A DNA stretch of 64,000 nt from an uncultured Bdellovibrionales bacterium (GCA_964387895.1 CAYLWX010000002.1:15779-79778); one strand, 5' to 3'. Numbered from the stretch's first letter, positions 32,992-48,828 are shown. Made by a program: numbers and translations. The notes: a model not told the origin generated them from the letters alone.

Positions 32992-33984
32992 TTATCTTGA
33001 TATATGCTCCGCCATCTCGACTAAACGGTGCGAATACCCCCATTCATTGTCATACCAGCCTACCACTTTAGCCATAGGTCCGTTTACCATAGTAAGCGGC
33101 AAATCCACCACGGCTGAATGCGTGTCACCTTTAAAATCCATGGAAACCAAAGGTTCTTCCGTAACACTTAGAATACCTTTTAATCCATTTTGAGACGATT
33201 CTTTGAACGCCTGGTTAATTTCTTCCGCGCTGGCTTCGCGTTTCAAGGTGCAAATAAAATCAACGATGGACACCACGGGAGTCGGTACGCGAAGCGCGAT
33301 GCCGTCCAGCTTTCCTTCCAGATTTTTCAACGCTTTGCCCACCGTCCTGGCAGCGCCAGTCGTAGTGGGAATAATATTCAACGCGGCCGCTCTGGCTCGG
33401 CGTAAATCTTTGTGGGGAAGATCCTGAATTCGCTGATCATTAGTGTAAGAATGCGTGGTAGTCATAAATCCCCTTTCCACGCCAAAATTTTCATCCAAAA
33501 CTTTGATCATCGGCGCGAGACAATTAGTCGTGCAGGAGCCATTGGAAATAATTTCTTCTCCTTCATACTCCTCCGCGTTTACTCCCAGAAGATATACGGG
33601 AATGTCATCCTTGGGAGGGGCGGACAAAATTACTTTTTTTGCTCCCGCCGCGAGATGTTTTCCCGCCGCTTCTTTGGTATCAAATACTCCCGTACATTCA
33701 AGCACAATATCCACGCCCAATTCTCTCCAGGGAAGCTCTCCGGGATCTTTACTGCGGAAGTACTTGATTCTTGTCCCGTCTATAATCAACTCGGATTTTT
33801 CCTCATCTACCGTAACCTCACGCCCGTATCGTCCGTAAGAAGAATCAAATTTCAGCAAATGTGTCGCAGTCGCGAGATCACACAAATCATTTACCGCCAC
33901 GACTTCCAATTCATCTTTCTCGAAGGCGATTTTGCACGCCAACCGGCCGATCCGGCCAAACCCGTTAATAGCGATTTTTATCAT
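32992..33984 (-). CDS. gap: glyceraldehyde-3-phosphate dehydrogenase
   Basis: MIKIAINGFGRIGR...SCTTNCLAP catalytic Cys motif. Confidence 0.9.
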   Translation of the reverse strand: MIKIAINGFGRIGRLACKIAFEKDELEVVAVNDLCDLATATHLLKFDSSYGRYGREVTVDEEKSELIIDGTRIKYFRSKDPGELPWRELGVDIVLECTGVFDTKEAAGKHLAAGAKKVILSAPPKDDIPVYLLGVNAEEYEGEEIISNGSCTTNCLAPMIKVLDENFGVERGFMTTTHSYTNDQRIQDLPHKDLRRARAAALNIIPTTTGAARTVGKALKNLEGKLDGIALRVPTPVVSIVDFICTLKREASAEEINQAFKESSQNGLKGILSVTEEPLVSMDFKGDTHSAVVDLPLTMVNGPMAKVVGWYDNEWGYSHRLVEMAEHISR

Positions 33985-34011: not shown

Positions 34012-34287
34012 TTATTCAGCTTCTATACTTTCTATTCTCCATACATCTCCCCCTGCTCTCTTTATTTCAAATCTCGCCCCTTCCAACACGGTATTCTTCG
34101 CCAGACTTTCTAATCCAAACTGTAAATTTTCCATGTTTATCTCTTCCGCGTGATCAGGCATCCCGTCATGCGAGAACGCGATGCTTCCTATCTCTAAACG
34201 CACCGCGGAAATTTTTTTTAATTTCTTCTCTTGCGCCACTTCCATAACTTTTCCAATTATTTCTTTGGCCAGAAAAAAATCATGCAT
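34012..34287 (-). CDS. HypA-like nickel-insertion protein, truncated (N-terminal MHD/MHE Ni-binding start but no C-terminal CxxC...CxxC zinc finger)
   Basis: Start set at MHDFFLAKEII (HypA begins MHE). 91 aa. No Cys pairs in the C-terminal part. Confidence 0.45.
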   Translation of the reverse strand: MHDFFLAKEIIGKVMEVAQEKKLKKISAVRLEIGSIAFSHDGMPDHAEEINMENLQFGLESLAKNTVLEGARFEIKRAGGDVWRIESIEAE

Positions 34288-34293
34288 ACTGTT

Positions 34294-34373
34294 TATGGAA
34301 CATAAAACATGGAACATGGAAAAAAATTTAAAATAATTTGTTCCATGTTATGTGTTCCATGTTTCATGTTTTT
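34294..34373. repeat. family-C dyad element (ACATGGA 7-mer inverted arrays around an A/T centre)
   Basis: ggaacataaaacatggaacatggaaaaaaatttaaaataatttgttccatgttatgtgttccatgtttcatg. Between the hydrogenase large-subunit stop and the HypA-like start. Confidence 0.65.
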
Positions 34374-35632
34374 TAGTGTACCGCGCAACTTATACACGGA
34401 TCATATGCTCTGATAAACGCTCTTAATTTCTTTTCTCTTTCTTTCTCAGGTAAGTCCACCACTTCAGGGATATAGGCTTTTATGTCATCCTCAAGATTGG
34501 ATAAAAATTGAGCGGTAGGAGTAATAATATTCACATTCTTTACGTATCCCTTCGCGTCTACCTCTGTATGATAATAGAGCGTGCCTCTGGGCGCTTCCAC
34601 CGCTGCCACACCAACCCCTTCCCGCGGGATATACTCTTTAGTTACCACTTGATTCAAATCGGCATTTAACAAAAGCCGCAACATTCTTCCTGATTCCTCC
34701 ACCGCGTGAATTACTTCTACCATTTGCGCCAGCACATTATGGAAAGGATTATAGTCCGGAAACTTCCACTGCAAAGAAGACAAATATTTTTCCGCCGCGG
34801 GAGAAAGCGCCATATGGTTTATATTCACTCTCGCGATTGCTCCTGTCATATAACTCTTTCCGTTGTGTTCCACTCTTTTTACTACCTCATGTTGTTTTTG
34901 CAGTTCGGAAAAATTGGATTCGAATTTGTCCACCGGTATATGCAACCCGTCGGAAGACACAATGTCCCCGTCATATACCGCGTACTCGTTTTTTTTCTGG
35001 AGACATACATATTCCGTATTCCGGGAAAAATACGGCAAGGTGATCTTCTTGAAAAATTCTCCCAGCTCCAACGCGTGCCGCAGTGTTTCTTCGCTATGCT
35101 CTATAATCTTTTTCACTGCCTCCGCGTCCGGCACTTTTTTGAATCCTCCTACCTCATTAGTGAGGGGATGCACGACTCGTCCTCCGATCACCCGCACGAT
35201 ATCCATGCCATATTCCCTGATCTTGATCGCTTTTTTGGCTTCTTCAGGATGTTCTTTGACCAATTGCAAATCGTTGCTGATATCCAGAAAATCAGCCAGC
35301 GATAAAAAGAAAAGATGCAGCCCGTGAGAGTGAATAATTTGTCCCAGCTCCAGAACCGCGCGAAGTTGCTCCGTCTCGCGGGTTACCATTACCCCCATTG
35401 CGTTTTCAAGGGATTTTATGGAAGTTAGATTGTGCACTACAGGACAAATCCCGCAAATCCGTTGCGCGATAACCGGCACATCTTTGTAGTGGCGTCCGAC
35501 TAAAATTCCTTCAATCAGGCGAATTCCCTCCTGCACTTCAATTTTTGCTTTGCGCACGTCACCTTTCAACACGCTGGCCATAAACCCCGCGTGCCCTTCC
35601 ATTTTTGCTACATGTTGTATGAGAATATCCAT
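34373..35632 (-). CDS. [NiFe]-hydrogenase large (catalytic) subunit, group-3-like, ending exactly at the DPCxxCxxH motif (no C-terminal extension)
   Basis: N-terminal RICGICPVVH (RxCGxCxxxH) and C-terminal DPCISCAVH-stop. Start set at MDILIQHVAKMEGHAGF (the ORF track extends to 35698, overlapping the small subunit). Confidence 0.8.
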   Translation of the reverse strand: MDILIQHVAKMEGHAGFMASVLKGDVRKAKIEVQEGIRLIEGILVGRHYKDVPVIAQRICGICPVVHNLTSIKSLENAMGVMVTRETEQLRAVLELGQIIHSHGLHLFFLSLADFLDISNDLQLVKEHPEEAKKAIKIREYGMDIVRVIGGRVVHPLTNEVGGFKKVPDAEAVKKIIEHSEETLRHALELGEFFKKITLPYFSRNTEYVCLQKKNEYAVYDGDIVSSDGLHIPVDKFESNFSELQKQHEVVKRVEHNGKSYMTGAIARVNINHMALSPAAEKYLSSLQWKFPDYNPFHNVLAQMVEVIHAVEESGRMLRLLLNADLNQVVTKEYIPREGVGVAAVEAPRGTLYYHTEVDAKGYVKNVNIITPTAQFLSNLEDDIKAYIPEVVDLPEKEREKKLRAFIRAYDPCISCAVH

Positions 35633-35636
35633 AATA

Positions 35637-36452
35637 TTATTCCTGGGTTCTTTCCTCAATAGCATCCCGTAATCCATAAATCTCCGTCGTATTTTCAAAC
35701 TCTTCGTCCGTCATCATATTTTTAAGCGTCGCGCGCATAGCTTTTACATTGCCTTTTGGACGAAGACCGCGGCAGCCCTGGCACATCATTTTGGAACTTG
35801 GACAGACTGCCTGGCAACCTCCCTGGATCATGGGACCAAAACAAGGTTTTTTATCCAGAAGAAGACAGCGATTGCCCAACTTTCTACATTCCACACACAC
35901 TGGCTGATCAGGAATTTCAGGAATCTTTCCTTCGATAATATCCGTCATATAGCGCAAAAATTCTTCACCGTCTATAGGACATCCCGGAAGCGTAAAGTCC
36001 ACTTTCACAAAATTATCCACTTCTTTAATTTCCGGATTAGAAACTCCCTGAATATATTTATAGACATGCTTGATCGTATTCTGCCCTTCCTGGTAATTTT
36101 TGATTTCCGGTATTCCTCCCATCGCCGCGCAATTTCCCAGTACTACCAGCAATTTACTTCGCTGTCTAAGTTGGAGAAGAGTTTTTATATTCTCTTCCGT
36201 CACCGGATTGCCTTCTATAATCCCCACATCGATATTTTCACCTTTATCTTCATCATCTTCCAGTAAACGAAAATCCACTAGTTCCACCTGCTGCAAAAAT
36301 TGTAAAAACCGCTCTCCTAAATCCAGAATGGCAAACTGGCATCCCTCACAGGAAGTAAGACTCACAATCGCAATTTTCGGTTTTGATCGATCTTTGGTTT
36401 TTATTTGTACCGCCAGATTCGAAATCTCCCGCGGATGAATAGATCCGGGCAT
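35637..36452 (-). CDS. [NiFe]-hydrogenase small/delta subunit with C-terminal poly-Cys Fe-S domain
   Basis: IAIVSLTSCEGCQ, GNCAAMGG, LPGCPIDG (complex I 20-kDa/NiFe small-subunit proximal-cluster motifs). C-terminal CVECRK...CFGPMIQGGCQAVCPSSKMMCQGCRG. Start set at 36452 (MPGSIHP). The track's N-terminus runs through the family-A repeat. Confidence 0.75.
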   Translation of the reverse strand: MPGSIHPREISNLAVQIKTKDRSKPKIAIVSLTSCEGCQFAILDLGERFLQFLQQVELVDFRLLEDDEDKGENIDVGIIEGNPVTEENIKTLLQLRQRSKLLVVLGNCAAMGGIPEIKNYQEGQNTIKHVYKYIQGVSNPEIKEVDNFVKVDFTLPGCPIDGEEFLRYMTDIIEGKIPEIPDQPVCVECRKLGNRCLLLDKKPCFGPMIQGGCQAVCPSSKMMCQGCRGLRPKGNVKAMRATLKNMMTDEEFENTTEIYGLRDAIEERTQE

Positions 36453-36495
36453 AATAGAGTTATCGATTATTGAAGCGAGGGTAGACACAATACTT

Positions 36496-36622
36496 AAATT
36501 TCCAATTCCCAAATCCCAATTTCCAATAAATGTCCAATGACCAAATTCCAAAAATTTTGCACATTGGGATTTGGGGTCCCGAGTACCCGGAATTGGAAAT
36601 TAGATATTGGGAATTGGAAATT
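36496..36622. repeat. family-A dyad element, copy with embedded GTCCCGAGTACCCGG palindrome
   Basis: aaatttccaattcccaaatcccaatttccaataaatgtccaatga ... ttgcacattgggatttggggtcccgagtacccggaattggaaattagatattgggaattggaaatt. Between hydG and the hydrogenase small subunit. Confidence 0.7.
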
Positions 36623-36687
36623 ACAGGAAATAAATTAAAAAAATTATAATCCAAACAGGCGGATCAACATATAAATTATATCACACT

Positions 36688-38082
36688 TTAGAAATACAAA
36701 TCTCTCTCTCCCTTCTCAATTCTCCCCAGTCTCTTTTCTGTCTCTTTTCTTACTTTCTTACTCGGTATTTCCCGCAGGTATTTTTTCATAATGTGTTCGC
36801 CTGATTCGCGCTCTTTGGGAGTGGCGTAATCTTCAAGATATTCTTTAAACGTGAGAATCGCGTTGGGGCGGCAGAAATTGTGAATGTTTCCAGGTTTGGC
36901 CAGATCCATAAAAGTCTCTCCGGTTCTTCCGGTTCGATAACAGGCGGTGCAAAAACTGGGAAGCAATTTTTGTTTTAAGATGCCCTGAATAAATTCCGCC
37001 ACGCTTCGATGATCGCTGGTATGAAACTGTTCTAATCTTTGTTCCTTTCCATATCCTCCCGGAGAAGTACGGGAGGCCGCGCTGGTTTGGGAAATGCCGA
37101 TCTTGAAAGCCCGCGAGCGAATTTGCGGCCGCTCGCGAGTGGAAATAATCATGCCGGTATAAGGTACGGCGAGGCGAAGTATCGCAATGATACGAAGCAA
37201 GTCCTGCTCGCTTACATGATACTTCGATTTGAAGGTTACCGTATCGGCCGGTTGCAATCGCGGTACGGAAATGGTATGCGGACCCACGCCGAATTTTTTC
37301 TCGAGATATTTCGCGTGGGAAAGCAGCCCTAATACTTCAAAACGATAATCGTATAATCCAAATAATACTCCCAATCCCACATCATCAATGTCAGCCCGAA
37401 AAGCGTTATCATGGGCAAAAAGCTGCCGCCGAAAATCAGCCTTGGGCCCATAGTGAAGCTTCTCGTAAGTTTCCAGGTGATACGTCTCCTGAAATAACTG
37501 ATACGTTCCGATGCCGGCCTTTTTGAGTTTGCGGTAATTTTCCACCGAAGTCGCGGCAATATTCACGTTCACTCTTCTGATAGCGCCGTTTTTTGATTTA
37601 GTTCCATAAATAGTTCTGATCACTTTCACTACATAATCAATAGTATTTTCTCCGGGATGCTCTCCAAATTCGAGCAGTAACCGCTTATGTCCCATATCCT
37701 CCAGTATTTTTACCTGTTCTTGTATCTCTTTTAAGGTAAGTTTTTTTCTCAGCGCCTTGTTACGCGCGTGAAACCCGCAATATTCGCAATCGTTCACGCA
37801 AAAACTGGAAATGTATAACGGGGCAAACAGCACCAGCCGTTCGCCGTATATTTCATCCTTGATCCTGCCCGCGACCTGGAATATTTCTTTCCAAAGCGCC
37901 TTGTCTTCGACCTGCAATAAATATCCGGCTTCCCTAAGATTCAGCCCCTTCTTTTTTTTAGCCTTTTCAAGCACAGAGCGCACCACTTCCTGTGAAGGGT
38001 TTTGCGTAGCACGTAATATAGCAACTATTTTTTTCTCGTTGATTATTGTTTTAATGTCAGACATAAAAAAATAATACCTCAT
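36688..38082 (-). CDS. hydG: [FeFe]-hydrogenase maturase HydG-like radical SAM tyrosine lyase
   Basis: Radical SAM CVNDCEYCGF (Cx3Cx2C) and a C-terminal CTAC-x22-C (Cx2Cx22C) auxiliary-cluster motif that distinguishes HydG from ThiH. ~460 aa. Confidence 0.7.
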   Translation of the reverse strand: MRYYFFMSDIKTIINEKKIVAILRATQNPSQEVVRSVLEKAKKKKGLNLREAGYLLQVEDKALWKEIFQVAGRIKDEIYGERLVLFAPLYISSFCVNDCEYCGFHARNKALRKKLTLKEIQEQVKILEDMGHKRLLLEFGEHPGENTIDYVVKVIRTIYGTKSKNGAIRRVNVNIAATSVENYRKLKKAGIGTYQLFQETYHLETYEKLHYGPKADFRRQLFAHDNAFRADIDDVGLGVLFGLYDYRFEVLGLLSHAKYLEKKFGVGPHTISVPRLQPADTVTFKSKYHVSEQDLLRIIAILRLAVPYTGMIISTRERPQIRSRAFKIGISQTSAASRTSPGGYGKEQRLEQFHTSDHRSVAEFIQGILKQKLLPSFCTACYRTGRTGETFMDLAKPGNIHNFCRPNAILTFKEYLEDYATPKERESGEHIMKKYLREIPSKKVRKETEKRLGRIEKGERDLYF

Positions 38083-38130
38083 ACTTTACGAAGGGGCGAG
38101 GGAGGACAAGGACATAACTAAAATATGGCA

Positions 38131-38160
38131 GGAGCGGGTTTGCAAACCCGCTCCTCTATT
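38131..38160. terminator. hairpin ggagcgggtttgcaaacccgctcc with flanking T-rich run, downstream of doxX and upstream of hydG
   Basis: Perfect 10-bp stem with a 4-nt loop. Confidence 0.4.
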
Positions 38161-38190: not shown

Positions 38191-38628
38191 CTATTTCGTC
38201 TCTTCTGTTTTATTAGAGTATTCGCATACCCCCAATACTCTTGCCAAAGAATATTTCCCCACTCCTAAAAGCGTGATGCTCAGCGCGGCAAGAAGCAATA
38301 CTAAATCATATTCATATCCTCCTACAAAACCCTTGCTAAACTTGACCAGGAAGATCGCTCCCACCATTACTGCCGCGATTCCTATTCCTGCCATCCGCAC
38401 GCACAATCCTAAAATCATAGCGGCCCCTCCTAATGTTTCAATTGCTATCACAAGATAGGCAAGAAAAGCAGGAACTCCCAAAACGCCAAAAAATCCTACC
38501 GTACTGTCGAGCGTGGTAAGTTTTTGGATTCCATGAACTAAAAACACCACTCCCACTCCTAACCGGATAAGCAATATGCCCACATTAGGACGGCGTATCC
38601 ATTGGCGCTTGTTTCCACACATACACAT
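38191..38628 (-). CDS. DoxX family membrane protein
   Basis: LIRLGVGVVFLVHGIQKL, four TM helices. Confidence 0.7.
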   Translation of the reverse strand: MCMCGNKRQWIRRPNVGILLIRLGVGVVFLVHGIQKLTTLDSTVGFFGVLGVPAFLAYLVIAIETLGGAAMILGLCVRMAGIGIAAVMVGAIFLVKFSKGFVGGYEYDLVLLLAALSITLLGVGKYSLARVLGVCEYSNKTEETK

Positions 38629-38702
38629 AGTTTTATTTTAAATATTAAGAATACACTTTTTCTATTGTAGCATTTTTTGCGTATCTGTAAAATTCGCTCA
38701 TC

Positions 38703-38779
38703 TGGTGCACGCATCCGGACTCGAACCAGAGACCTCTTCAGTGTGAATGAAGCGCTCTAACCAACTGAGCTATGCGTGC
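38703..38779 (-). tRNA. tRNA-Val (anticodon CAC), CCA encoded
   Basis: Reverse complement GCACGCATAGCTCAGTTGGTTAGAGCGCTTCATTCACACTGAAGAGGTCTCTGGTTCGAGTCCGGATGCGTGCACCA. Confidence 0.9.
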
Positions 38780-38784
38780 GGAAA

Positions 38785-39462
38785 TTATATATCAATAGTA
38801 AAAAGTATCCTATCCCCGCTTCCTTCGAACGCTTCCTTTTCCAGTGGATTTTTCAAAATTTCCCGAAGAACAAGATTATCCGGAGTATTTTGCAAAGCTC
38901 CTTCATCCATAAAAAACGCTTTTGCCAGGGCGGGAGCATTATTCACACTGGAGTAATATTTCAGCGTTCCAATACTTTGAAATCCCAGCGAATCATAAAA
39001 TCCTTCATGTTTAGGATTAATGGCAATACACAGTGTGTCAATATCGTGAAAATGCGCGTAGTAAAAAACCACACGAAACAGCGAAAGCAATACTAATGAC
39101 TGCGCTTTTATTTTATTTTTCCCTATACCCTCCATATGCTCCCTATTGATCGCCAGTTGGGAAATTTCCGCGATTTTTCTGTTTTTATTTCTTAGCGCGT
39201 TTACCTCTTCTTTATAAATAGCTTCCATGGGCATGCCACGCGCTCCGTCTGTTACAATAGAAATAGTCGCAAGTAAAGTTTCCCCTATCCCAGCCTGAAA
39301 TGTAACAGATACCGGGAGAAGATTACCATGGGATACTGGATTTTTTTTTGAGCGCTCCGCTTTATCAATATACCCTTCTTTCAGGTATTCTTTACGCACT
39401 AATTGGGAAGATTTTTCAAACTTGTCTTTGGAGACGATAAGAGAAAAGACAATTTCAGACAT
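38785..39462 (-). CDS. putative acyl-ACP-dependent N-acyltransferase (OlsB / N-acyl amino acid synthase-like GNAT-fold)
   Basis: 225 aa. Weak resemblance to the Acetyltransf_5/OlsB family. Last gene of a nine-gene operon that also encodes an ACP, a PPTase and a PlsC acyltransferase. Assignment is tentative. Confidence 0.35.
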   Translation of the reverse strand: MSEIVFSLIVSKDKFEKSSQLVRKEYLKEGYIDKAERSKKNPVSHGNLLPVSVTFQAGIGETLLATISIVTDGARGMPMEAIYKEEVNALRNKNRKIAEISQLAINREHMEGIGKNKIKAQSLVLLSLFRVVFYYAHFHDIDTLCIAINPKHEGFYDSLGFQSIGTLKYYSSVNNAPALAKAFFMDEGALQNTPDNLVLREILKNPLEKEAFEGSGDRILFTIDI

Positions 39463-39469
39463 ATCCTTT

Positions 39470-41050
39470 TTAATATTGAGGCATTAAAATTACTTCCCTT
39501 TCATGCACTCCGCTCAGTATCTCGGTGAAGTTATCATCAGAAATTCCTGTTTCTATTTCCGCTTTTATATTTTTTCCATTTCTTACCATGTTCACAAAGC
39601 TTTTTCCTCCCGCTTTTTCTATATAACGGCCAGGCACTCTTATCGCGGTATCTTTTCTTCCAAATTCAATCCTGGCATCCGCCGTCATCCCTTCCCTGGC
39701 GCCAAAAACGAATCCCTCCAAAGATATGTTAGCTCTATAATATACATCTCCATTTTTATTCATCGGCTGGGGATCGATGGAAGTCACTTTTCCGGTTACT
39801 TTTTCGTCAGGGAAAGCCTTCAACTTCACATTCACATTATTCCCTATACTCACGTTCACGATATCCTCTTCCGGAACATCCGCGTGCAACTTTTGGTTAA
39901 AGGCGGAAAAAATCACCGCCGTTTGTCCTCCGGGAAACGCGGGAATAACTTCAGACTCTTTGAATAAAGTTTTCATTACCATTCCGTCCATTGGCGCTTT
40001 CAGAGTTGATTTATCAAGTTTATTATTCAAAATATCTATATTACTATGTATAAAATCAACTTCACTTTGAGCCATTCGCACGTCCTCGCTTCTCACCTTC
40101 GCGTCCGCGAACACAAGATTTTTCTGGGCTACATCACGATCGCCCTTCGCCTCACCCAAATCTATTACTGACTCTCTCACCGCGACCTTCGCCGCGTCCA
40201 TATTAGTTCTGGCCAAAGAAACGGAAGATTTCCATGAATCTATAGTAGCCTGGGACACGCCGTTATCCGTAGTAAGCTGGTTCACCGCCTGGGCAATTTT
40301 GTCCAGATAAGACTGGATGCTATCCATCCGGCTGTACCCTTTATCTAATGCATCGTCCAAATCATCTGAATACTCCAGCGCGTCCACTGAATCTTCCCAG
40401 TCATCAAGCTTTTCTTCCAATGAGCTTCTTTTAGATTCGATGTCACTCTCAAGACTGGAATCTCCAATGGTAAAGTTTAACCGGGGATTAGCGCTATCAG
40501 GATTAGAAAACATCTGGTTGGTTTTTCCGCGAACCGAGTCTTCTCCCGCCGTGTAAGCGCTCCTGACTACATCTACCAGGGCCTTCTTCGCGTCCTTAAT
40601 GGAACTGTTATAGGCTTTTACTTTTTCCTTATAGACTTGGATGCTTTCTTCGGTAGCTCCTGCCAGTATTTTGTCCAGATTCGCCTGGGATTTAATTAAA
40701 GACGCGTTAAGTCCCTTCATTTCCAGATCCAGATCATTGGTCTCAAGTTTCATAAGCGGATCCCCCTTCTTCACCGTAGCGCCCGCGGGAGCAAAAATTT
40801 TCTCGACTTTTCCGGAAAAAGAATAGGCCAGATTAAGATTTTCTTCCGAAACAACCACCGCGTCATCTATATCCACGTATTTTACCACTATGCCCCTTTC
40901 CGCCTGTACTGATTCTCCTGACTGCCCTTTATTATTGCTTGATTTATTATCATCTTTTTCAGCGGCCAAAATGCTCGCGCCCAAGAATACAAGCATAACC
41001 GAATTAGCGATGAAAAATAATATGATTAATATTTTTTTTATTTTTACCAT
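39470..41050 (-). CDS. HlyD/MacA-family periplasmic adaptor (membrane fusion) protein
   Basis: N-terminal TM anchor, ~200-aa coiled-coil hairpin, biotinyl/lipoyl-like and beta-barrel segments. Confidence 0.7.
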   Translation of the reverse strand: MVKIKKILIILFFIANSVMLVFLGASILAAEKDDNKSSNNKGQSGESVQAERGIVVKYVDIDDAVVVSEENLNLAYSFSGKVEKIFAPAGATVKKGDPLMKLETNDLDLEMKGLNASLIKSQANLDKILAGATEESIQVYKEKVKAYNSSIKDAKKALVDVVRSAYTAGEDSVRGKTNQMFSNPDSANPRLNFTIGDSSLESDIESKRSSLEEKLDDWEDSVDALEYSDDLDDALDKGYSRMDSIQSYLDKIAQAVNQLTTDNGVSQATIDSWKSSVSLARTNMDAAKVAVRESVIDLGEAKGDRDVAQKNLVFADAKVRSEDVRMAQSEVDFIHSNIDILNNKLDKSTLKAPMDGMVMKTLFKESEVIPAFPGGQTAVIFSAFNQKLHADVPEEDIVNVSIGNNVNVKLKAFPDEKVTGKVTSIDPQPMNKNGDVYYRANISLEGFVFGAREGMTADARIEFGRKDTAIRVPGRYIEKAGGKSFVNMVRNGKNIKAEIETGISDDNFTEILSGVHEREVILMPQY

Positions 41051-41061
41051 AGCGTTAAAAT

Positions 41062-41790
41062 CTATACATGTTGGGCACGGGAGTAAAAACGATTTTTTTC
41101 ATTTCCAACAAGCTTTCCATCCCGGAGAGTGATAATCCTGTCAGCCGATTGGGCTTCTTCTCTTTCATGAGTCACCAATATCATGGTTCTATGAAACACC
41201 TTATTTGCTTTTTTCAAAAAATCAATAACCATCCGTCCATTTTCTAAATCAAGATGAGCAGTAGGTTCATCTACGAGGATAATGAGAGAATCTTTCGCCA
41301 ACGCCCTGCCAATAGCCACTCTCTGCTGTTCTCCCCCTGAAAGCTCCCGCGGAAAGAAAGAAGCTCTGTCCTTAAGACCCAGAAAATCAATAATGCGCTG
41401 CGCCCTGCTTTTAGCCTCACTGCCGCTTAATCGCTGCAACTTTAACTGAAAAATAATATTTTCAACCGCCGTGTAATTTTCTATCAGGTTAAAAAACTGA
41501 AAAATAAATCCTACGGATTGCAACCGAAATTTATTTTTTTCCTTTTCAGAAAGCTTTTGAGTATCATTGCCATTTATAATTATTTTTCCGCCGGTAGGAT
41601 CGTCCAGAAGGCCGAGAAGGTTAAGCAAGGTTGTCTTGCCCGATCCGGATGAACCGTTAATAGCCAGAAATTCACCCCGCGAGACTTCAAAACTTACTCC
41701 GTTAAGAGCCGGCACTGTAACATATTTGCTCACTTTATATTCTTTATAAAGGTCCTGGACGCTTATTAACGTATCCGCAGTTTCATCCAT
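41062..41790 (-). CDS. ABC transporter ATP-binding protein, MacB/LolD/FtsE-type
   Basis: GSSGSGKTT Walker A, LSGGEQQRVAIGRAL signature, ILVDEPT Walker B. Confidence 0.85.
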   Translation of the reverse strand: MDETADTLISVQDLYKEYKVSKYVTVPALNGVSFEVSRGEFLAINGSSGSGKTTLLNLLGLLDDPTGGKIIINGNDTQKLSEKEKNKFRLQSVGFIFQFFNLIENYTAVENIIFQLKLQRLSGSEAKSRAQRIIDFLGLKDRASFFPRELSGGEQQRVAIGRALAKDSLIILVDEPTAHLDLENGRMVIDFLKKANKVFHRTMILVTHEREEAQSADRIITLRDGKLVGNEKNRFYSRAQHV

Positions 41791-42981
41791 TTAGATAGCA
41801 TTACGAATTACGTCTGCGATTCTTGTTTTAGCGGCAATGTAGGAAGGAATAATGCTTCCCGCAAGTGAAGCTCCCACTAGAATAAAAAATAATTTTATTG
41901 CTTCTCTTTCCACAAAGACAGTGTGAAAATCTCCAATCAAAAGATTTATAGGATGGTTAGTCGAGTAAATATTCAGCAGCATAAACAACAGAAAACCGAT
42001 AAAATAGGACAAGCTGGCATACACAAAGGTCTCGAAAATATAAATTGCGACCACAAATCTGTTGCTCGCTCCCATTGACTTAAGAATTCCAATCTGTCTT
42101 CGGCGCTGAAATACGTTAATAAATATTATCACACTCATTATAACAAACGTAGTTTCAATTAACAAATTAGTAATACTTCCCGTGATAAACACTACCGCCG
42201 CGATAATGTCCTTAATGTATCCTGCTTCGTCTTCCCACGTAAACACCGCTATCCCCTGCAATTGATTCTGAATTAACCTGCGGACATCCTCCATCCTGGA
42301 GGAGTCTTTCAGTCTCACGACTATCTCACTATCCTTTCCTCGTCCATCTATGCGTTCTGTTTCTTTTTTAGGCAAGACAGCCCACCAGTTGGAAAGAAAG
42401 TTTTTAGCGTCAAAAATTCCTACCACCGTATAGTTTTCCCATTCCCCTTCAACCGATCTGATTTTTACTTGTTCTCCTACGCGAATCATCTTTCCATCAT
42501 ACGCCAATCCTTCCAACGCGTCGGCAAACGTAATTCCCAGAGCAACGCTTTTAGTGTCATGCGGGTCAATAAACCTGCCGTGAATAATTCGCTCGGAAAC
42601 CTTCGAAGTTCTAATCTCGTTGAATACATCGACTCCCAGAATCGCATAGGGACGACTTATCCGGTTATCGTATTCGAAATCTGCCTGCCCATGGTTTCTT
42701 ATGCTGTAAGATTCCACTTCTTTTATCCGGGAAAGGTACTCCGCTACTTCGGATACATTTTCTATCTTCTTCTTTTTTTTCTCCGGCTTTACACGCAGAT
42801 GAGCATTAGTATCAACTTCCCCGTTTATTAAAGTTGCCTTAAACCCTTCCAGCACGCCAGAAGAAATAAACACCGCGGTAAACGCCGAACTTAGGCTTAT
42901 AATCGTAAGCACTAACACGGTCCTGCTTTTGGAAACATCTCTTAAGGCAAACGATATGAGGATGAGTATTCTGTTTAGCAT
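41791..42981 (-). CDS. ABC transporter permease, FtsX/MacB-type with large extracytoplasmic domain
   Basis: TM1, a ~220-aa periplasmic domain, three C-terminal TM helices. Abuts the ATPase gene. Confidence 0.75.
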   Translation of the reverse strand: MLNRILILISFALRDVSKSRTVLVLTIISLSSAFTAVFISSGVLEGFKATLINGEVDTNAHLRVKPEKKKKKIENVSEVAEYLSRIKEVESYSIRNHGQADFEYDNRISRPYAILGVDVFNEIRTSKVSERIIHGRFIDPHDTKSVALGITFADALEGLAYDGKMIRVGEQVKIRSVEGEWENYTVVGIFDAKNFLSNWWAVLPKKETERIDGRGKDSEIVVRLKDSSRMEDVRRLIQNQLQGIAVFTWEDEAGYIKDIIAAVVFITGSITNLLIETTFVIMSVIIFINVFQRRRQIGILKSMGASNRFVVAIYIFETFVYASLSYFIGFLLFMLLNIYSTNHPINLLIGDFHTVFVEREAIKLFFILVGASLAGSIIPSYIAAKTRIADVIRNAI

Positions 42982-42998
42982 GGGATATATTGTATGAA

Positions 42999-43892
42999 TC
43001 AGGTTCTACGCGACTTCAATAAAAATTTTTTCGCGTACCAGATTTTTAGTCTTTGCGTGATATTTTTATTACCGCCATAAATATACTTTTTTTTGTATTT
43101 TTTCACAAAGGGATCAAACTGAGACACAAAGGGAACCGTGTCTACTTTTTTACCAAGAATAATTTTAACAATCTCAGAACCAACCAGGACGGCGCACATT
43201 AGTGGTCCAATTCCAAGCGAAGGCGCTTTTTGGTCGTGAAAATCAATCGATTGCGGACGGAAATAAGAAGAGTGAATAAGAAAAGGACTTACCCCGAGAG
43301 AAAACCGTACCATCATTTCAGAATAATCCATGGCATCATCTATATTAAAATACTCTTCAAATGTCATACCTGATGGATCAAACACCAAAAGGGAAGCACC
43401 AAATCCTATCGGTCCGGAAGTTATCACAGGGATCCCTTTTCTTCTGGCTTCTCGAAAAAGCATCAAGCGATCCTTTATACAGAAAAAATCCAACCCGTCT
43501 ACTGCCACATTTGCCCCTTCTAAAAATATATCTACATTGTCTTTATGTATTCCATCCTCAAAAGCAGTTATATGTAAGAACGGATTTATGGCTTTAGCCA
43601 TTTTTCTCATTACCTCGCATTTTTTTTCTCCTAACGTGTTCGTATTGGCGCCCGCCTGGCGATTAATGTTAGCAACTTCGAAGGAATCAAAATCAGCAAT
43701 TGAAAAGTTTCCAATGCCGACCCTGGAAAGACTTAAGAGATAATTCCCGCCTACTCCGCCCATTCCCGCGATAGCAACTTTGGCCATCTTTAACTTATTC
43801 TGTTCTGAGAGTGATAAAACGCCAATATTTCTAGCATAAGCTTCCTGGTAAAAATCACTTTTCTTTTTCTCAAAATGTGTGTCATTAACCAT
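42999..43892 (-). CDS. ThiF/MoeB/HesA-family E1-like adenylyltransferase
   Basis: IAGMGGVGGNYLLSLSRVGIGNFSIADFDSFEVANINRQ is the E1 Rossmann nucleotide-binding motif. Confidence 0.7.
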   Translation of the reverse strand: MVNDTHFEKKKSDFYQEAYARNIGVLSLSEQNKLKMAKVAIAGMGGVGGNYLLSLSRVGIGNFSIADFDSFEVANINRQAGANTNTLGEKKCEVMRKMAKAINPFLHITAFEDGIHKDNVDIFLEGANVAVDGLDFFCIKDRLMLFREARRKGIPVITSGPIGFGASLLVFDPSGMTFEEYFNIDDAMDYSEMMVRFSLGVSPFLIHSSYFRPQSIDFHDQKAPSLGIGPLMCAVLVGSEIVKIILGKKVDTVPFVSQFDPFVKKYKKKYIYGGNKNITQRLKIWYAKKFLLKSRRT

Positions 43893-43906
43893 GTGGTAAG
43901 AGGCCG

Positions 43907-44668
43907 TTATTTTTTGTTAATAAAATTCAATGCCTCATTAAGGATATCCGGATTCACGTTTATAAAAGAATGCCCGCACGTAAGTTCTTTGAAATTTCCC
44001 TTCCGGGAAATTTGGTATTTCAGGGGAACGAGAATGTCTTTCCTGCAGGAAATATACAAATGCTTTTCGACTGAATTTTTATCCTGTATATATTCTAATA
44101 CTCCATTCCACGGTTCTGGATTAAAGGAAAAATTCTTATTATACTTATACGCTAATTCTGTGCTGGGAATAGGGATTGCGGGAGATATGATGGTAACCAG
44201 CTTGTCTACTTTTTCAGATCCATGCAACTTTTCTACGTAGTATCTTGCCGTGACTCCCCCCAGACAAATACCGATAATATTTAATTTTTTAGTCTTAGTT
44301 TCTTTAAGCACCTCGTCCACGTATTGACTAAGTTTCTTCGCTGACATATCCGGAGAGTCTTTATAATCATATTCAAATGAAACTACGCGCAATCCATTCT
44401 CCTTGAACCAGAGTGCCGTTCCGTATACATCCTTGTAGTACTCAGCCCCCGCTCCATGCACAAGAATAGTTAGCGAAGTTTGATTTTTTTTCGCATTCTC
44501 TATGCTTTCCTCATTGAATGTGTCCATTTTTTCCCTGGTTCCCGAGAGAGAAATCAGACTATAATACAGCTTGCTGCTGAAATTATTAAAATAATTAGAT
44601 GAGTTCAACCACGCAATAACCAAAAGCACTGTCAATACTACTACGATGATACCCGCTATTTTAAACAT
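43907..44668 (-). CDS. alpha/beta-hydrolase (lipase/esterase-like) with N-terminal TM anchor; nucleophile elbow is G-I-C-L-G (Cys in place of Ser)
   Basis: LVHGAGAEYY oxyanion region and IIGICLGG elbow. Confidence 0.55.
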   Translation of the reverse strand: MFKIAGIIVVVLTVLLVIAWLNSSNYFNNFSSKLYYSLISLSGTREKMDTFNEESIENAKKNQTSLTILVHGAGAEYYKDVYGTALWFKENGLRVVSFEYDYKDSPDMSAKKLSQYVDEVLKETKTKKLNIIGICLGGVTARYYVEKLHGSEKVDKLVTIISPAIPIPSTELAYKYNKNFSFNPEPWNGVLEYIQDKNSVEKHLYISCRKDILVPLKYQISRKGNFKELTCGHSFINVNPDILNEALNFINKK

Positions 44669-44694
44669 TGGATTATGATAATAATTTTTAGAAT

Positions 44695-44940
44695 TTACGT
44701 ATGCAACACTTCGGTGGCATATTTTACAATGTCCCCGACCGTTTCTATTCTTATCAATTCATCGTACTGAAGTCTTCGATTAAATTTTTTCTCAAATGCC
44801 ATAATAAGAGAAAATACCTGTATAGAGTCTTTGCATAAGTCCTCAATTTTTGAATCCATGGTTATCTCTGCTCGGTTTATTTTTAATTGTTCGCGGAGTA
44901 TATCATACACCGCATTGGTTATTTTTTCCTGACTTTCCAT
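44695..44940 (-). CDS. acyl carrier protein-like
   Basis: 81 aa. LCKDSIQVFSLIMAFEKKF fits the ACP helix-II DSL phosphopantetheine-attachment motif. Confidence 0.6.
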   Translation of the reverse strand: MESQEKITNAVYDILREQLKINRAEITMDSKIEDLCKDSIQVFSLIMAFEKKFNRRLQYDELIRIETVGDIVKYATEVLHT

Positions 44941-44944
44941 ACTG

Positions 44945-45661
44945 TTATGTTATAAAAACCTGGGAAACTACATAGTTATTATTGAATATCAACCATTGTA
45001 TTTTTGACGCCATGTAAGTACCTTCTTGTTTTAAAGCAAATTTTCCCTTGTTATCCTTACTTATAACTAACGATCCCGGGTGAATGAGGAGCCCCTGTCC
45101 ACAAGCCTTAAGATATGATTCCTTGATGCTCCAAAAAAGAGTAGCCATAATATTTTTTTCATCTTTCGAATTATCAGACAAGTACCCCAATTCTTCATTC
45201 GTAAGAAAATCTTCCAATAATTTTTGGGTAAACGTCTGTATCTTCTCAATATCCACGCCCACGTATCCGCTTCTTTCTTTCCACGACACCGACGCGATTC
45301 CTATTCCGTCTGTATGAGCTATACTAAGATCAATTTTCCTGTTTATAGAATTAATCCTTTTACTAAGTCTTCTTCTTGTGCGGTATGAAGGTTTTCGAAA
45401 TTTTCCACTCTCAATTTCAATCTCATGAAGAGGGATGAAGACAAAACAACTGTTGTAAAAAAAATTACTGAGTGCGATCTTGGCTGCAACTCTTCCCGCT
45501 ATCCAATCATCTCTTTTCACCCGGTGCTTCCCCTGGTATTCTTCCCACTCTCTATCAGTAAGATACTCTCTTAGCGGCAGGCTTTGTAGCATTTTTTGGT
45601 CTGCAATCGCGATCATCTTAATTAGAATAACTGTTTTCCAAAGCCAGATTATCAATGGCAT
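44945..45661 (-). CDS. 4'-phosphopantetheinyl transferase (Sfp-type)
   Basis: GVDIEKIQ and FWSIKESYLKACGQG match the PPTase (V/I)G(I/V)D and (F/W)(S/C/T)xKE(S/A)xxK motifs. Confidence 0.7.
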   Translation of the reverse strand: MPLIIWLWKTVILIKMIAIADQKMLQSLPLREYLTDREWEEYQGKHRVKRDDWIAGRVAAKIALSNFFYNSCFVFIPLHEIEIESGKFRKPSYRTRRRLSKRINSINRKIDLSIAHTDGIGIASVSWKERSGYVGVDIEKIQTFTQKLLEDFLTNEELGYLSDNSKDEKNIMATLFWSIKESYLKACGQGLLIHPGSLVISKDNKGKFALKQEGTYMASKIQWLIFNNNYVVSQVFIT

Positions 45662-46265
45662 TTTTTACAACATCGATATTTTTAAATTCTTCACTATATT
45701 CATATACCGGACTGAAAATCAACTGGCGCTGAGGATTCCAGACAGCCAGCCAATTACTTCTTTGAAATCCGACCATTTTAACAAACACGATATTCTCTGC
45801 CACGTCAACAAAAAAGGTTACCCCCAGATGAAAATCAGACAAATCGTTACTAGCGCATATTTTCCCTTCCGGAAACAGCATAATAGTTTTTCTGTCTATT
45901 AAATATTGGCGAGTCCGAAAAAGATTAGCCATTTTATCCTTTTTAGTATTTCCAATATCATAACAGCCTAGAATCGAAAAAAATCTTAACTTAGTATAAT
46001 ATTCATGTGAAGTGGGGAATCGCACAGGCAGTACTTTTATGAAGGTGCAAAAAGGAAGACGAGCAAGAATTAAAAATGGGTCCAACACTGATTGATGATT
46101 GGAGATAATCAGAGATCCTTTTTTCAATTGTCCGATATTATCAGAAATGCTGTTAACTGATCTGAAAAAATAACGCAGGAAACGAGAAAACACAACATAC
46201 GCCATGATCTGAGTAAGGGTTATAGCGTAGTCAACTGCTTTTCGCGAAAATATGTTGCTTTGCAT
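45618..46265 (-). CDS. PlsC-family lysophospholipid acyltransferase-like protein
   Basis: IISNHQSVLDPF (HxxxxD acyltransferase motif) and FPEG motif. Start set at MQSNIF. The track ORF extends to 46337. Confidence 0.65.
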   Translation of the reverse strand: MQSNIFSRKAVDYAITLTQIMAYVVFSRFLRYFFRSVNSISDNIGQLKKGSLIISNHQSVLDPFLILARLPFCTFIKVLPVRFPTSHEYYTKLRFFSILGCYDIGNTKKDKMANLFRTRQYLIDRKTIMLFPEGKICASNDLSDFHLGVTFFVDVAENIVFVKMVGFQRSNWLAVWNPQRQLIFSPVYEYSEEFKNIDVVKNAIDNLALENSYSN

Positions 46266-46477
46266 GATTTTTAGATAACCCCCATGAGATACATAATCGA
46301 AAATCAACCAGCAACCAGCTTTTTGCTCATTTCTCAACTCGCCTAATAGTAAATAATGGTGTTTGAAGCAATCATACCAAACTCGTAATGATAATGCAAA
46401 ATGCCGGAGTCAATTTTCTGGATTGCTCGCGCGCGGTATCGGTGCTATAATCCCAAAAAGCTGCAGCATCCTTATTT

Positions 46478-47536
46478 ATGGAAACCATTAGAGATTATAT
46501 CGTAGAAATACTCCAGGACGGACATCTGGCCCCTTCAGCGGATAATGCCCAGCCGTGGTTTTTTAATATTGAAGGCGACTCTATAGTGGTTACCCATGAC
46601 GTTGAAGCCACTCACGCCAACCATCTCTACAATCTTGATTATTTCGCGGATTACATAAGCTTAGGATGTGTAGTGGAAAATATTTTTATTAGCGCAAAAC
46701 GATACGGATATACCGCCGGCATTGTATCAACCGATCATAGCAACGGCCGATTTTCTATTCGAATTAAACTAGATAAAACACACGCTCCGTCAACTCTCCC
46801 TTTGTATGAAGCTATCAAAGAAAGAAAGACTGATCGCAACGCCTATCTCCAGAAGAAAATTCCCGGGCGTATTAGCAGGGAGTTATGTGCTATCACCTCA
46901 ACGCGGGGAGCTACTCTTCATTGGATAGAAAACGATTCCTTGCTTTCCTCGTTCGCTGACACAATAGCTCTGCATGACGCCATTTTATGGGAAGACGAAG
47001 CGGTAAGAATAAATCTTCTCCGAATGATCCGATTGGATAATAAGAAGTGCGAAGATGGATTGCCTATAAAAAGCCTCGGCTTGGGAATAAAGAGACATCT
47101 TTTTTATCCTTCCATAAAAATAGCCGGACATCTCCCTCTTTTTTGGAAAGTGCTGAAGTACAGCTCAATAGACCACACCAGAAAAAATACAAAAAAATCC
47201 GCCGCCCTGGGTATTCTTACTATGCCTAAAGAACATAGCCCACTTACCTACCTGGAAGGCGGAAGAATAATGCAATCTCTCTGGATTAATCTGACAATGA
47301 ATAAAATATCCTTCCAGCCTCTTTTCGGATCAGTAGCGTTAATACTGAACAGTAAACTTGGCACGGAAGGATTGTCAGAAAAACACAAGAAAATAAGAGA
47401 TACTATTTCAAATTTTTTCTATAGCCAAATTCCAGAACTTCAAACCGCTACTCCCATCGCGATTTTCCGCGTGGGATATGCCAGCAAACCTGCAGTAAGA
47501 TCGGGGAGAAAAAAATTAGACGCGGTAGTGCGGTAA
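46478..47536 (+). CDS. two-domain nitroreductase-family protein
   Basis: PSADNAQPWFF N-terminal nitroreductase motif. ~350 aa, consistent with tandem nitroreductase folds (SagB/Acg-like architecture). Confidence 0.5.
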   Translation: METIRDYIVEILQDGHLAPSADNAQPWFFNIEGDSIVVTHDVEATHANHLYNLDYFADYISLGCVVENIFISAKRYGYTAGIVSTDHSNGRFSIRIKLDKTHAPSTLPLYEAIKERKTDRNAYLQKKIPGRISRELCAITSTRGATLHWIENDSLLSSFADTIALHDAILWEDEAVRINLLRMIRLDNKKCEDGLPIKSLGLGIKRHLFYPSIKIAGHLPLFWKVLKYSSIDHTRKNTKKSAALGILTMPKEHSPLTYLEGGRIMQSLWINLTMNKISFQPLFGSVALILNSKLGTEGLSEKHKKIRDTISNFFYSQIPELQTATPIAIFRVGYASKPAVRSGRKKLDAVVR

Positions 47537-47559: not shown

Positions 47560-48828
47560 TCATCTTTCAATTTCCTCCCTCATTCTCTCCTCCAGCATCT
47601 GATAACTTTCTTCGGCTTTAAATAAGCCGTATTTTTCCCAAATATTTCCTTCTTCGTGAAATTTATTAGCATATATTTTATACAGCGGACGATATTTCGG
47701 CGGGGTGAGATTAAACATCAAAGAATTCGCGCCGGCCGTAAGCGCTTGTTTTCTAATGTCTTTTCCTGCTAATGTTTCCAACGCCGTTACCACCGGAATG
47801 CGGCCGGTTTTCATCATGAGACGCAACACCGCGATCATATTGAGAATTAATTGTACGTCTCCGACCGGCTGACCTTCCATAGGAGTATTATTCCCCGGCA
47901 CAAACGGACCAAAGCTGGCCATATGGGCCAGTTTTTTAATCAGCAGTACATCATCGGCAATATCTTCGATCGTCTGTCCGGGAAATCCTACAATGGATCC
48001 GGTCGCAATAAAGTAGCCGATACTTTTTAAATATCCCAAAGTTTCCAACCGGTTTTTCAAATTTTTTCCATGCGTATGAAATTTTTTGAAAAGTTCCAGG
48101 TTGGAAGTTTCAAAACGAAACAGTACTCCCGACGCGCCCGCTTCTTTCATTTTTTTGTACGCCTCTTTGCTTCGCTCTCCGACACTCATAAAAATAAACG
48201 CTTTGGCGCGATTTTTGATGCCTGTGATAATTTGAAGCAACATCTCGTCAGTATAAAACAAGTCTTCCCCCGACTGGAGCACGAAAAGCTTATATCCTTT
48301 TTCATCTACTGCCTGTACGGCCGTCTCTATAATTTCCGCAACACTCATACGGTAACGTTCTATGGCAGCATTTTGCGCCCGCAGTCCGCAATAAGCACAA
48401 TCATTTTTGCAATAATTGGAAAACTCTATAATGCCGTGAATACAAATAAAATCTTTAAGATAGGTTTTACGCAAAACATCCGCCTCGGCAAAAAGCGCTT
48501 CTCTTTCATCCCCTTCCGCCCTGAGAAGATATATAATTTCTTCTTTGGTTAAATCTCTTTCTTTTGACGCGGTGATTATATCTTTAAATTCTTGCGATAG
48601 CTTTTCCTTGTCCGCCAAAGGATGAAAATTCTCCAACAAACTGATAATTTCCTTCGCGTCAATTTCTGAAATTTTCCGGACCGCGGTATTGGAAGTATAC
48701 AGCAACCAGTCCCCGACTTTAAGATCGGGAATATAAGAAGCCAGAACTTTTCGACTTGAATTCGAGTCGTTAATAATGGCAAAATTGCCTTCCAGTTTAG
48801 TTACTTTGGCGGGGATGGTGAGACACAT
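47560..48828 (-). CDS. hydE: HypC-domain / HydE radical-SAM fusion protein
   Basis: N-terminal MCLTIPAKVTKLEGNFAIIN...VGDWLLY aligns to HypC/HybG (MC(I/L)xxP...GN.A.V...VGxWVL). The rest matches HydE: IIEFSNYCKNDCAYCGLRAQNAAIERYRM, FVLQSGED, GSIVGFPGQTIEDIADD. Confidence 0.7.
   Translation of the reverse strand: MCLTIPAKVTKLEGNFAIINDSNSSRKVLASYIPDLKVGDWLLYTSNTAVRKISEIDAKEIISLLENFHPLADKEKLSQEFKDIITASKERDLTKEEIIYLLRAEGDEREALFAEADVLRKTYLKDFICIHGIIEFSNYCKNDCAYCGLRAQNAAIERYRMSVAEIIETAVQAVDEKGYKLFVLQSGEDLFYTDEMLLQIITGIKNRAKAFIFMSVGERSKEAYKKMKEAGASGVLFRFETSNLELFKKFHTHGKNLKNRLETLGYLKSIGYFIATGSIVGFPGQTIEDIADDVLLIKKLAHMASFGPFVPGNNTPMEGQPVGDVQLILNMIAVLRLMMKTGRIPVVTALETLAGKDIRKQALTAGANSLMFNLTPPKYRPLYKIYANKFHEEGNIWEKYGLFKAEESYQMLEERMREEIER

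Follow-up and report, generated by a model that had tools for sequence, protein, structure and literature searches.

A HydG and HypC-HydE fusion pair beside a [NiFe] hydrogenase as a candidate hybrid maturation module

The active sites of the [NiFe] and [FeFe] hydrogenases, a textbook case of convergence, arise through unrelated machineries: Hyp proteins working with carbamoyl phosphate make the former, and Hyd proteins relying on tyrosine and radical S-adenosylmethionine (radical-SAM) chemistry the latter. Enzymes of the HydG family cleave tyrosine and assemble an [Fe(Cys)(CO)2(CN)] synthon, which the HydE protein of Thermotoga maritima takes over, removing the cysteine scaffold by radical chemistry. 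The large subunits of Ech/CooH-type group 4 and sensory group 2b [NiFe] hydrogenases end at or just after the final His and so need no endopeptidase step. We describe here a locus in which components of both machineries stand together, in a 64-kb stretch of DNA, presented as one strand, from an uncultured Bdellovibrionales bacterium (GCA_964387895.1 CAYLWX010000002.1:15779-79778). This whole stretch is called the window below, and the statements on genes, repeats and absences in the window cover these 64 kb. The comparative evidence suggests that the iron unit of the [NiFe] hydrogenase of this locus is probably made by a hybrid module, HydG plus a HypC-HydE fusion, instead of HypC/HypD/HypE/HypF.

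Parts of this arrangement have appeared in the literature. Among the group-3b 'hyd1/hyd2' hydrogenases of candidate phyla radiation (CPR) bacteria, Jaffe et al. 2020 (BMC Biol, PMC7304191) listed a neighbour protein family with 'homology to hypC', with neither HydG nor HydE and no discussion of maturation. A 2026 preprint on Ca. Centrionella anaeramoebae (bioRxiv 10.64898/2026.04.11.717937) reported an 'unusual HydE-HypC fusion' in one uninterpreted sentence and did not mention HydG or HypDEF. A 2025 minireview in Metallomics (PMC12134894) does not mention radical SAM, tyrosine or HydG and gives the anaerobic origin of CO as the most pressing open question, and Greening et al. 2024 treated HydEFG as [FeFe] maturases only. 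In the full-text literature, where subscription journals are incompletely covered, we found no proposal of a HydG/HydE-dependent [NiFe] maturation.

The four genes transcribed from 38.1 to 34.0 kb on the minus strand were, in order, hydG, the [NiFe] small/delta subunit, the [NiFe] large subunit and a HypA-like gene. A preliminary description of this DNA, made from the sequence alone, had given the same order with HydG beside a [NiFe] hydrogenase, and only small gene-start corrections were needed. The genes of the locus are as follows.

36688-38064, minus strand: HydG, by family a radical-SAM tyrosine lyase and Fe(CO)2(CN) synthon synthase (TIGR03955, alignment with 4WCX).
35637-36452 (start approximate), minus strand: [NiFe] small (delta) subunit (Pfam Oxidored_q6; best NCBIfam match HydD/ShyD delta).
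34373-35632, minus strand: [NiFe] large (alpha) subunit of the CPR group-3b type, 419 aa (NCBIfam ShyA/HydA, PDB matches, motifs).
34012-34287, minus strand: HypA-like nickel chaperone without zinc finger, 91 aa, MHD start (Pfam HypA, 36.7 bits).
47560-48828, minus strand: HypC-HydE fusion, with the HypC domain at aa 1-65 (MCLTIP start) and the HydE radical-SAM domain at about aa 80-390.

The open reading frame (ORF) of hydG spans 36688-38082, and its likely start is M7 at 38064, which gives a protein of 458 aa identical to the NCBI protein encoded on a contig of 98,029 bp. The small-subunit ORF as listed reaches 36551, running through a dyad element described below, and its product is 72-80% identical across related loci. 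An aldolase gene (49690-50553) and a glyceraldehyde-3-phosphate dehydrogenase (GAPDH) gene (32992-33984) flank the locus. The tblastn and profile searches found no beta/gamma, NuoF/G-like, HypB, HypD, HypE or HypF gene in the window, so that the absence of beta/gamma subunits, claimed earlier for the immediate neighbourhood, extends to all of it; HydF and [FeFe] HydA were not found in the window either.

The HydG protein scored 583.8 bits against TIGR03955 (rSAM_HydG, cutoff 312) and 287.8 bits against the ThiH profile, under the ThiH cutoff of 380. The motifs read from the translation were CX3CX2C (CVNDCEYC) and a C-terminal CTAC-x22-C (CX2CX22C), and the protein aligned end to end with Thermoanaerobacter italicus HydG (4WCX) with 553 bits, the C-terminal domain being aligned through the last residue. 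The two profile scores and the CX2CX22C tail confirm the earlier reading of this gene as HydG rather than ThiH, and ThiH or a role in thiamine biosynthesis was rejected on the NCBIfam cutoffs together with the C-terminal domain. From its family membership, the window protein is predicted to be a tyrosine lyase giving CO and CN-. The HydG alignment contained no column separating NiFe-linked from HydF-linked HydG, and both types were mixed on the tree; a specialised 'NiFe-HydG' subfamily was dropped on these two grounds. The likeness of HydG in both contexts fits the same synthon being handed to either downstream partner, and as judged from the sequences the most likely product of HydG is the [Fe(Cys)(CO)2(CN)] synthon in either context. 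Homologues of HydG about 70% identical are also annotated from DPANN archaea (Aenigmarchaeota, Nanoarchaeota and Altiarchaeota; P0322, P0333, P0361), on contigs of at most 610 kb, another being of 555 kb. On a 798-kb Patescibacteria contig (L072), HydG had no partner gene within 10 kb.

The fusion, also claimed in the preliminary description, was recovered by profile matches to both of its parts. The HypC part matched Pfam HupF_HypC (PF01455) with 53.2 bits over aa 1-65 (cutoff 28.5), and the HydE part matched TIGR03956 with 276.5 bits (cutoff 254.6) and T. maritima HydE (TmHydE) with 227 bits. An AlphaFold2 model of the fusion was confident as a single body (predicted local distance difference test, pLDDT, 90.4; predicted TM-score, pTM, 0.89) and superposed on T. 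maritima HydE with a Foldseek TM-score of 0.85-0.89 relative to the target. The fusion family comprises more than 120 clusters at 54-90% identity, with the same two domains and many invariant columns.

In the HypC domain, Cys2 was retained in all fused proteins but one, the exception being a start-call gap only. His51 (E. coli numbering) was present in 19/19 HypD-adjacent HypCs and in none of the 48 fused domains, and it was replaced by Gln in all 11 stand-alone HypCs without a HypD neighbour. C2, and possibly H51, of HypC have been proposed to coordinate Fe on the HypCD scaffold together with C41 of HypD (PMC12134894). The HypC of the fusion, as it appears from these residues, keeps a free Cys2 but no longer looks suited to HypD.

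The HydE residues were compared between 47 fused proteins and a set of nine made of 8 unfused proteins and T. maritima HydE. R54 was replaced by H, and R155 by G, A or S, in 47/47 fused HydEs, both positions being R in 9/9 of the unfused set, and T134 was changed to F, I or L in 41/47 fused HydEs and was T in 8/9 unfused ones. In the fusion of the window, H131 and G234 correspond to R54 and R155 of TmHydE. The radical-SAM residues C63, C67 and C70 were conserved in all fused HydEs, as was M291 (47/47), with M224 in 46/47; L157, V105, R159 and T269 were also retained, and the C-terminal auxiliary-cluster cysteines were absent. A 2025 quantum mechanics/molecular mechanics (QM/MM) study assigned the polar contacts with the CN ligands of both Fe(I) units, within the dimerisation cavity of HydE, to R54, T134, R155 and T269 (PMC11826987). 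The HydE of the fusion thus appears to combine intact radical-SAM and iron-holding methionine residues with a remodelled product cavity.

The position of the module was compared with that of the maturation genes of relatives. A GTDB scan with one genome per species gave 57 Moranbacteria loci, all from metagenome-assembled genomes (MAGs), some of them labelled only Patescibacteria, Parcubacteria, 'bacterium' or uncultured Bdellovibrionales, and their neighbourhoods were tabulated by tblastn. About 30 Moranbacteria loci carried HypC-HypD-HypE and a short HypF directly upstream of the same small subunit, often preceded by NuoF/NuoG-like genes, which about 20 relatives have upstream in place of beta/gamma genes. 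Two Logan contigs, L062 and L063, whose large subunits are 74-76% identical to that of the window, exhibited the order aldolase, HypC-HydE, HydG, small subunit, large subunit, (desulfoferrodoxin, Dfx), HypA-like, GAPDH, with the fusion abutting hydG. The window has the same order, but with an insertion of about 9.4 kb between hydG and the fusion. The HypC-HydE plus HydG cassette therefore occupies the slot of HypCDEF within one lineage, on essentially the same hydrogenase. On the large-subunit tree the cassette types were interspersed, and we found no large-subunit residue specific to HydG-type maturation, as no alignment column separates the HydG-type from the HypDEF-type enzymes; these two results argue that both cassettes deliver a compatible cofactor.

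Other contents of the slot were also seen. A few Moranbacteria loci had HypC with EamA and DUF6390, or a lone HypC, in the maturation slot, and some relatives had no maturation genes within 5-9 kb upstream. This third cassette, located upstream of the small-subunit gene in close relatives, is made up of a HypC on its own (His51 changed to Gln), a transporter (EamA) and a DUF6390 protein whose C-terminus gave a weak HypC-like match (L001 6341-8145; L145 4605-6410; L018, L024, L036), with no HypDEF or HydG within 10 kb, and it may be another maturation solution. The Moranbacteria HypF is only about 370 aa long, with Kae1-like C-terminal domains and without the acylphosphatase, zinc-finger and YrdC domains (L003 4590-5705; about 30 loci), and it was always on the strand opposite HypCDE. 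In about 30 loci, a gene for a superoxide-reductase-type desulfoferrodoxin stood between the large-subunit and HypA-like genes (L003 11283-11657; L062 14794-15168); it is absent from the window, and its position hints at a link between the two-subunit hydrogenase and oxygen/superoxide detoxification.

The linkage of the module was surveyed in metagenomes. A scan with HydG gave 80 loci at 57-74% identity, which with the window, L062 and L063 make 83. A HypC-HydE fusion ORF of 392-450 aa was directly beside HydG in 48/83 loci, with HypC at aa 1-65 and the start MC[LY][TA]IP bar a few start-call variants. A [NiFe] large subunit was present in 21 of these 48, and the hydrogenases were of several types: 3b accompanied by beta/gamma, group 4 resembling Mbh/Mrp, and enzymes whose extensions are longer. 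HydF and [FeFe] HydA were found in 0/48 fusion loci. Complete unfused HydE occurred in 8 loci, accompanied by HydF in 5/8, HydA in 2/8 and a [NiFe] enzyme in 0/8, and the comparison of fused with unfused HydE by Fisher's exact test gave p = 1.5e-5 for HydF and p = 0.02 for NiFe. The profile search detected HypD and HypE in 0/83 HydG loci, its sole HypF match being a TsaD false positive, and HypB was restricted to two of the 83 (L126 and L128). In four CPR contigs (L085, L117, L140, L086), the two maturase genes lay between the gamma and delta structural genes, and a Deltaproteobacteria MAG (L126) showed the order hypA, hypB, HypC-HydE, HydG. The source names of the fusion covered Patescibacteria (Falkowbacteria, Portnoybacteria), Elusimicrobia, Parachlamydiales/Chlamydiae and Deltaproteobacteria. 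In some non-CPR loci, feoB-feoA iron transport genes flanked HydG and the fusion (L095 7094-9991, L100, L134), and in a Chlamydiae contig they were flanked by suf Fe-S assembly genes (L090 11368-16007).

A pathway can be proposed for the hybrid module. HydG would make the [Fe(Cys)(CO)2(CN)] synthon from tyrosine, and the HydE domain would accept it and strip the cysteine scaffold. As R54, R155 and T134 are gone from the cavity of the fused HydE, we infer that the Fe units would not dimerise for HydF and that a mononuclear iron carbonyl-cyanide would go instead to Cys2 of the tethered HypC. The loss of His51 from the fused HypC suggests that this domain would in turn deliver the iron unit into the apo large subunit. 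Nickel insertion would presumably be aided by the Zn-less HypA-like protein, and no proteolysis would follow because the large subunit already ends at His. For the conversion of Fe(CO)2(CN) to Fe(CO)(CN)2, a second HydG-derived cyanide would be the obvious candidate.

The preliminary description had proposed a non-canonical [NiFe] maturation with tyrosine-derived ligands. This part gained from the neighbourhood statistics, the replacement of HypCDEF in its slot and the residue changes, and the link made there to protease independence did not hold, as detailed below. For the wider proposal of a HypD/E/F-independent pathway to the [NiFe] iron unit in CPR, Elusimicrobia, Chlamydiae and Deltaproteobacteria, in which all diatomic ligands would come from tyrosine via HydG and a specialised HydE would strip the scaffold and pass a mononuclear Fe-carbonyl-cyanide to its own HypC, we consider the case about evenly balanced.

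Several points weigh against the hybrid module as the source of the iron unit. In 27/48 fusion loci no hydrogenase was present in the available sequence, some of it 20 kb long (L065, L068, L090, L095), so linkage of the module to one is not universal, and in L064 and L146 the fusion stands alone beside ribosomal genes. HydG or HydE was near the hydrogenase in 0/57 of the GTDB species-representative Moranbacteria loci, which makes the HydG arrangement a minority within Moranbacteria. The ligands do not match, the HydG product having two CO and one CN and the [NiFe] site one CO and two CN. The role of R54, R155 and T134 comes from a QM/MM study, not from mutagenesis, and the support for the hybrid module is all comparative genomics. 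HypD/E/F, HydF or an [FeFe] hydrogenase could also be encoded outside the 64 kb.

The best surviving alternative is that the module gives a part of the cofactor, for example CO, and works with HypD/HypE/HypF encoded elsewhere. HydG makes CO, whose anaerobic source in [NiFe] maturation is the question left open by the minireview (PMC12134894), the stoichiometry problem would be gone if HypEF supplied the cyanides, and the genome beyond the window could encode HypDEF. We nevertheless regard this alternative as unlikely, since the module sits in the exact HypCDEF slot of close relatives, HypD and HypE were never alongside it across the 83 loci, and His51 is lost, although it would be expected to be kept if the fused HypC still served HypD. 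Moreover, the 'full maturation machinery' of a Legionellales symbiont paper consists of HybD, HypA, HypB and the fusion, with HypD, HypE and HypF unmentioned.

Somewhat less probable still is that HydG and HypC-HydE mature an unseen [FeFe] hydrogenase, the proximity to [NiFe] genes being a 'hydrogen island' coincidence and the HypC-like domain shuttling the synthon among HydG, HydE and a distant HydF. HydG and HydE are both above the NCBIfam equivalog cutoffs, the 553-bit alignment of HydG is with a bona fide [FeFe] maturase, HydF-linked and fusion-linked HydG are intermixed on the tree, and several long fusion loci are without any hydrogenase. Against this stand the distribution of HydF and HydA, which accompany unfused HydE and never the fusion in the survey, the placement of the module inside [NiFe] structural operons and a hypA-hypB operon, and the loss from the fused HydEs of cavity residues in contact with the cyanides of the di-iron product. 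HypC is furthermore a chaperone of the [NiFe] large subunit, and the fusion leaves its N-terminus free, with the essential Cys2 in place. That the two genes are decaying or inactive transferred remnants, with a hydrogenase that is non-functional or matured by other factors, is very improbable: CPR genomes are reduced and patchy, some relatives lack upstream maturation genes and a third cassette exists, but the catalytic motifs of HydG, HydE, HypC and the large subunit are all intact, and the fusion family is large, conserved at many columns and spread over CPR, Elusimicrobia, Chlamydiae and Deltaproteobacteria.

The hydrogenase to which the hybrid module would deliver its iron unit was characterised from its large subunit, which contains both Ni-binding motifs, RICGICPVVH and a terminal DPCISCAVH followed by the stop; the two motifs are invariant among 64 relatives. 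The best NCBIfam match was the sulfhydrogenase ShyA/HydA alpha subunit, and the best solved relatives were the alpha subunit of Pyrococcus furiosus sulfhydrogenase I (SHI; 217 bits) and Thermococcus kodakarensis HyhL. The group-3 resemblance noted earlier can on this basis be narrowed to group 3b, an assignment made by NCBIfam and PDB matches. The beta (FeS) and gamma (FAD/NAD(P)) subunits of the group-3b heterotetramer are absent from the window and from the Moranbacteria loci, and both are present in other CPR loci (L074, L085, L086, L117, L140). Homologues of the large subunit number in the thousands. Identity to the closest 120 is 71-90%; almost every one has 419 aa, and their names, Moranbacteria, Moraniibacteriota or Parcubacteria, are those of CPR bacteria. 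The bacterium of the window is itself read here as one of the Moranbacteria, tiny and of a groundwater type.

Residues 2-419 of the protein aligned with residues 7-424 of the 428-residue P. furiosus SHI alpha subunit, so that it stops four residues earlier. The observation that the ORF stops after the final His, without a C-terminal extension, was correct. The 'protease-independent' maturation drawn from it was not borne out as a mark of the non-canonical system: the same His is the last residue of more than 60 large subunits from Moranbacteria, next to HypCDEF or HydG alike, extension-less large subunits also occur in other CPR 3b enzymes, and HydG-linked hydrogenases outside CPR keep their extensions (such as HFLKVNWL), with genes for HycI-type proteases in the vicinity. 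Since the extension is lost with both cassette types and kept with HydG outside CPR, the two traits are independent, and the missing C-terminal extension is, as read from these alignments, a separate trait of the CPR 3b enzymes. In about 25 Moranbacteria loci, a gene for a matrixin-like protein (Peptidase_M10) lies between the small and large genes (L003 8940-9893; L001 8924-9862); the window has no such gene, and its small and large genes abut. This protein was rejected as a substitute maturation protease because of its N-terminal hydrophobic signal/anchor, the lack of a cleavable peptide on the large subunits and its absence from the window.

The HypA-like protein had been described with the MH(D/E) N-terminus and without the zinc finger, and the window protein agrees with both, as it contains no Cys at all. 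The Pfam HypA match covers only profile positions 1-69 of 112, and the alignment with T. kodakarensis HypA (3A43) only residues 1-64. In nearly every related locus, the large-subunit gene is followed downstream by a homologue of about 90 aa. Among 67 such homologues, 59 begin with MHD and the rest have [VL]HD start calls, and CxxC was found in none. These 67 proteins share a conserved 11-residue insertion, aHDg..EH.EDi, not present in T. kodakarensis HypA, which may be a substitute metal site.

The remaining features of the region are intergenic elements and the segment inserted between hydG and the fusion.

36496-36622, no strand assigned: dyad of GGGAATTGGAAAT-type repeats between hydG and the small subunit (folding compared with shuffles).
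34295-34372, no strand assigned: dyad of CATGGAA-type repeats between the large subunit and the HypA-like gene (inverted repeats I1-I4).
38130-38155, minus strand: terminator-like GC hairpin upstream of hydG, closing the inserted segment (consensus scan only).
38185-38158, minus strand: promoter-like site (consensus scan only).
38191-47536, no strand assigned: inserted segment of about 9.4 kb from hydG to the fusion (recognised by the fusion abutting hydG in L062 and L063).

Both dyad elements of the preliminary description proved real by folding far better than shuffled sequences, with -51.2 kcal/mol (z -4.7) for 36490-36630 and -27.5 kcal/mol (z -5.9) for 34290-34375. Their core words occurred elsewhere in the window 19 times against 5 expected and 7 times against 0.55. 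Intergenic copies of two hairpin-forming repeat families, GGGAATTGGAAAT-type and CATGGAACATGGAA-type, were found, the GGGAATTGGAAAT-type at 316-395 and 23837-23941 and the CATGGAA-type word family again at 23214-23290; both families look like genome-wide palindromic intergenic elements of 7-nt units. The inserted segment contains genes for DoxX, a tRNA (38706-38779), a FeeM-like N-acyl amino acid synthase, an efflux/ABC trio and a ThiF-like protein, as well as a hydrolase, a phosphopantetheinyl transferase (PPTase), an acyltransferase and a nitroreductase-like protein. Three of these genes, FeeM, ThiF and nitroreductase, each correspond to a different region of the multidomain Rv1355c/PRK14852 family and look like a split version of that protein.

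If the hybrid module does supply the [NiFe] iron unit, the [FeFe] and [NiFe] pathways would be interchangeable at the Fe(CO)(CN) unit, which would make an evolutionary and mechanistic bridge between them, and at least some anaerobes would have a defined source of the CO ligand. hydG, hypC-hydE and the hypA-like gene would form a compact set for heterologous production of [NiFe] hydrogenase. In metagenomes of CPR and other uncultured lineages, the presence of HydE and HydG would no longer be evidence of [FeFe] metabolism.

Compared with the canonical [NiFe] maturation by HypA-F and an endopeptidase (PMC12134894), the locus shares the large-subunit target RxCGxC...DPCxxCxxH, a HypC chaperone whose essential Cys stands at the N-terminus, and a nickel chaperone of the HypA type. 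It differs in that its HypC, joined to a radical-SAM enzyme, has no His51, the zinc domain is missing from HypA, no HypB/D/E/F is encoded in the window and there is no C-terminal peptide to cleave. With the [FeFe] H-cluster maturation by HydE, HydF and HydG, it has in common a full-length HydG with the CX2CX22C motif and a HydE fold with Met224 and Met291, whereas a linked HydF scaffold or HydA target is missing here and HydE carries an N-terminal HypC, no auxiliary-cluster cysteines and the changes R54H, R155G and T134F/I. The CPR group-3b 'hyd1/hyd2' enzymes (Jaffe et al. 2020, BMC Biol, PMC7304191) belong to the same enzyme clade, and their subunit context is patchy in the same way. In Ca. 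Centrionella anaeramoebae, which has a genome of 1.52 Mb (bioRxiv 10.64898/2026.04.11.717937), the [NiFe] operon has the same fusion architecture and a HypA, but it also contains HypB and the HybD protease and encodes a different group-3 hydrogenase type. In contrast to the extension-less enzymes of groups 4 and 2b, the trait appears here in the group-3b lineage, whose archaeal relatives carry a 4-residue extension. Set beside these systems, the locus looks like a natural Hyp/Hyd hybrid, a variant of the known maturation systems that would be widespread in uncultured anaerobes.

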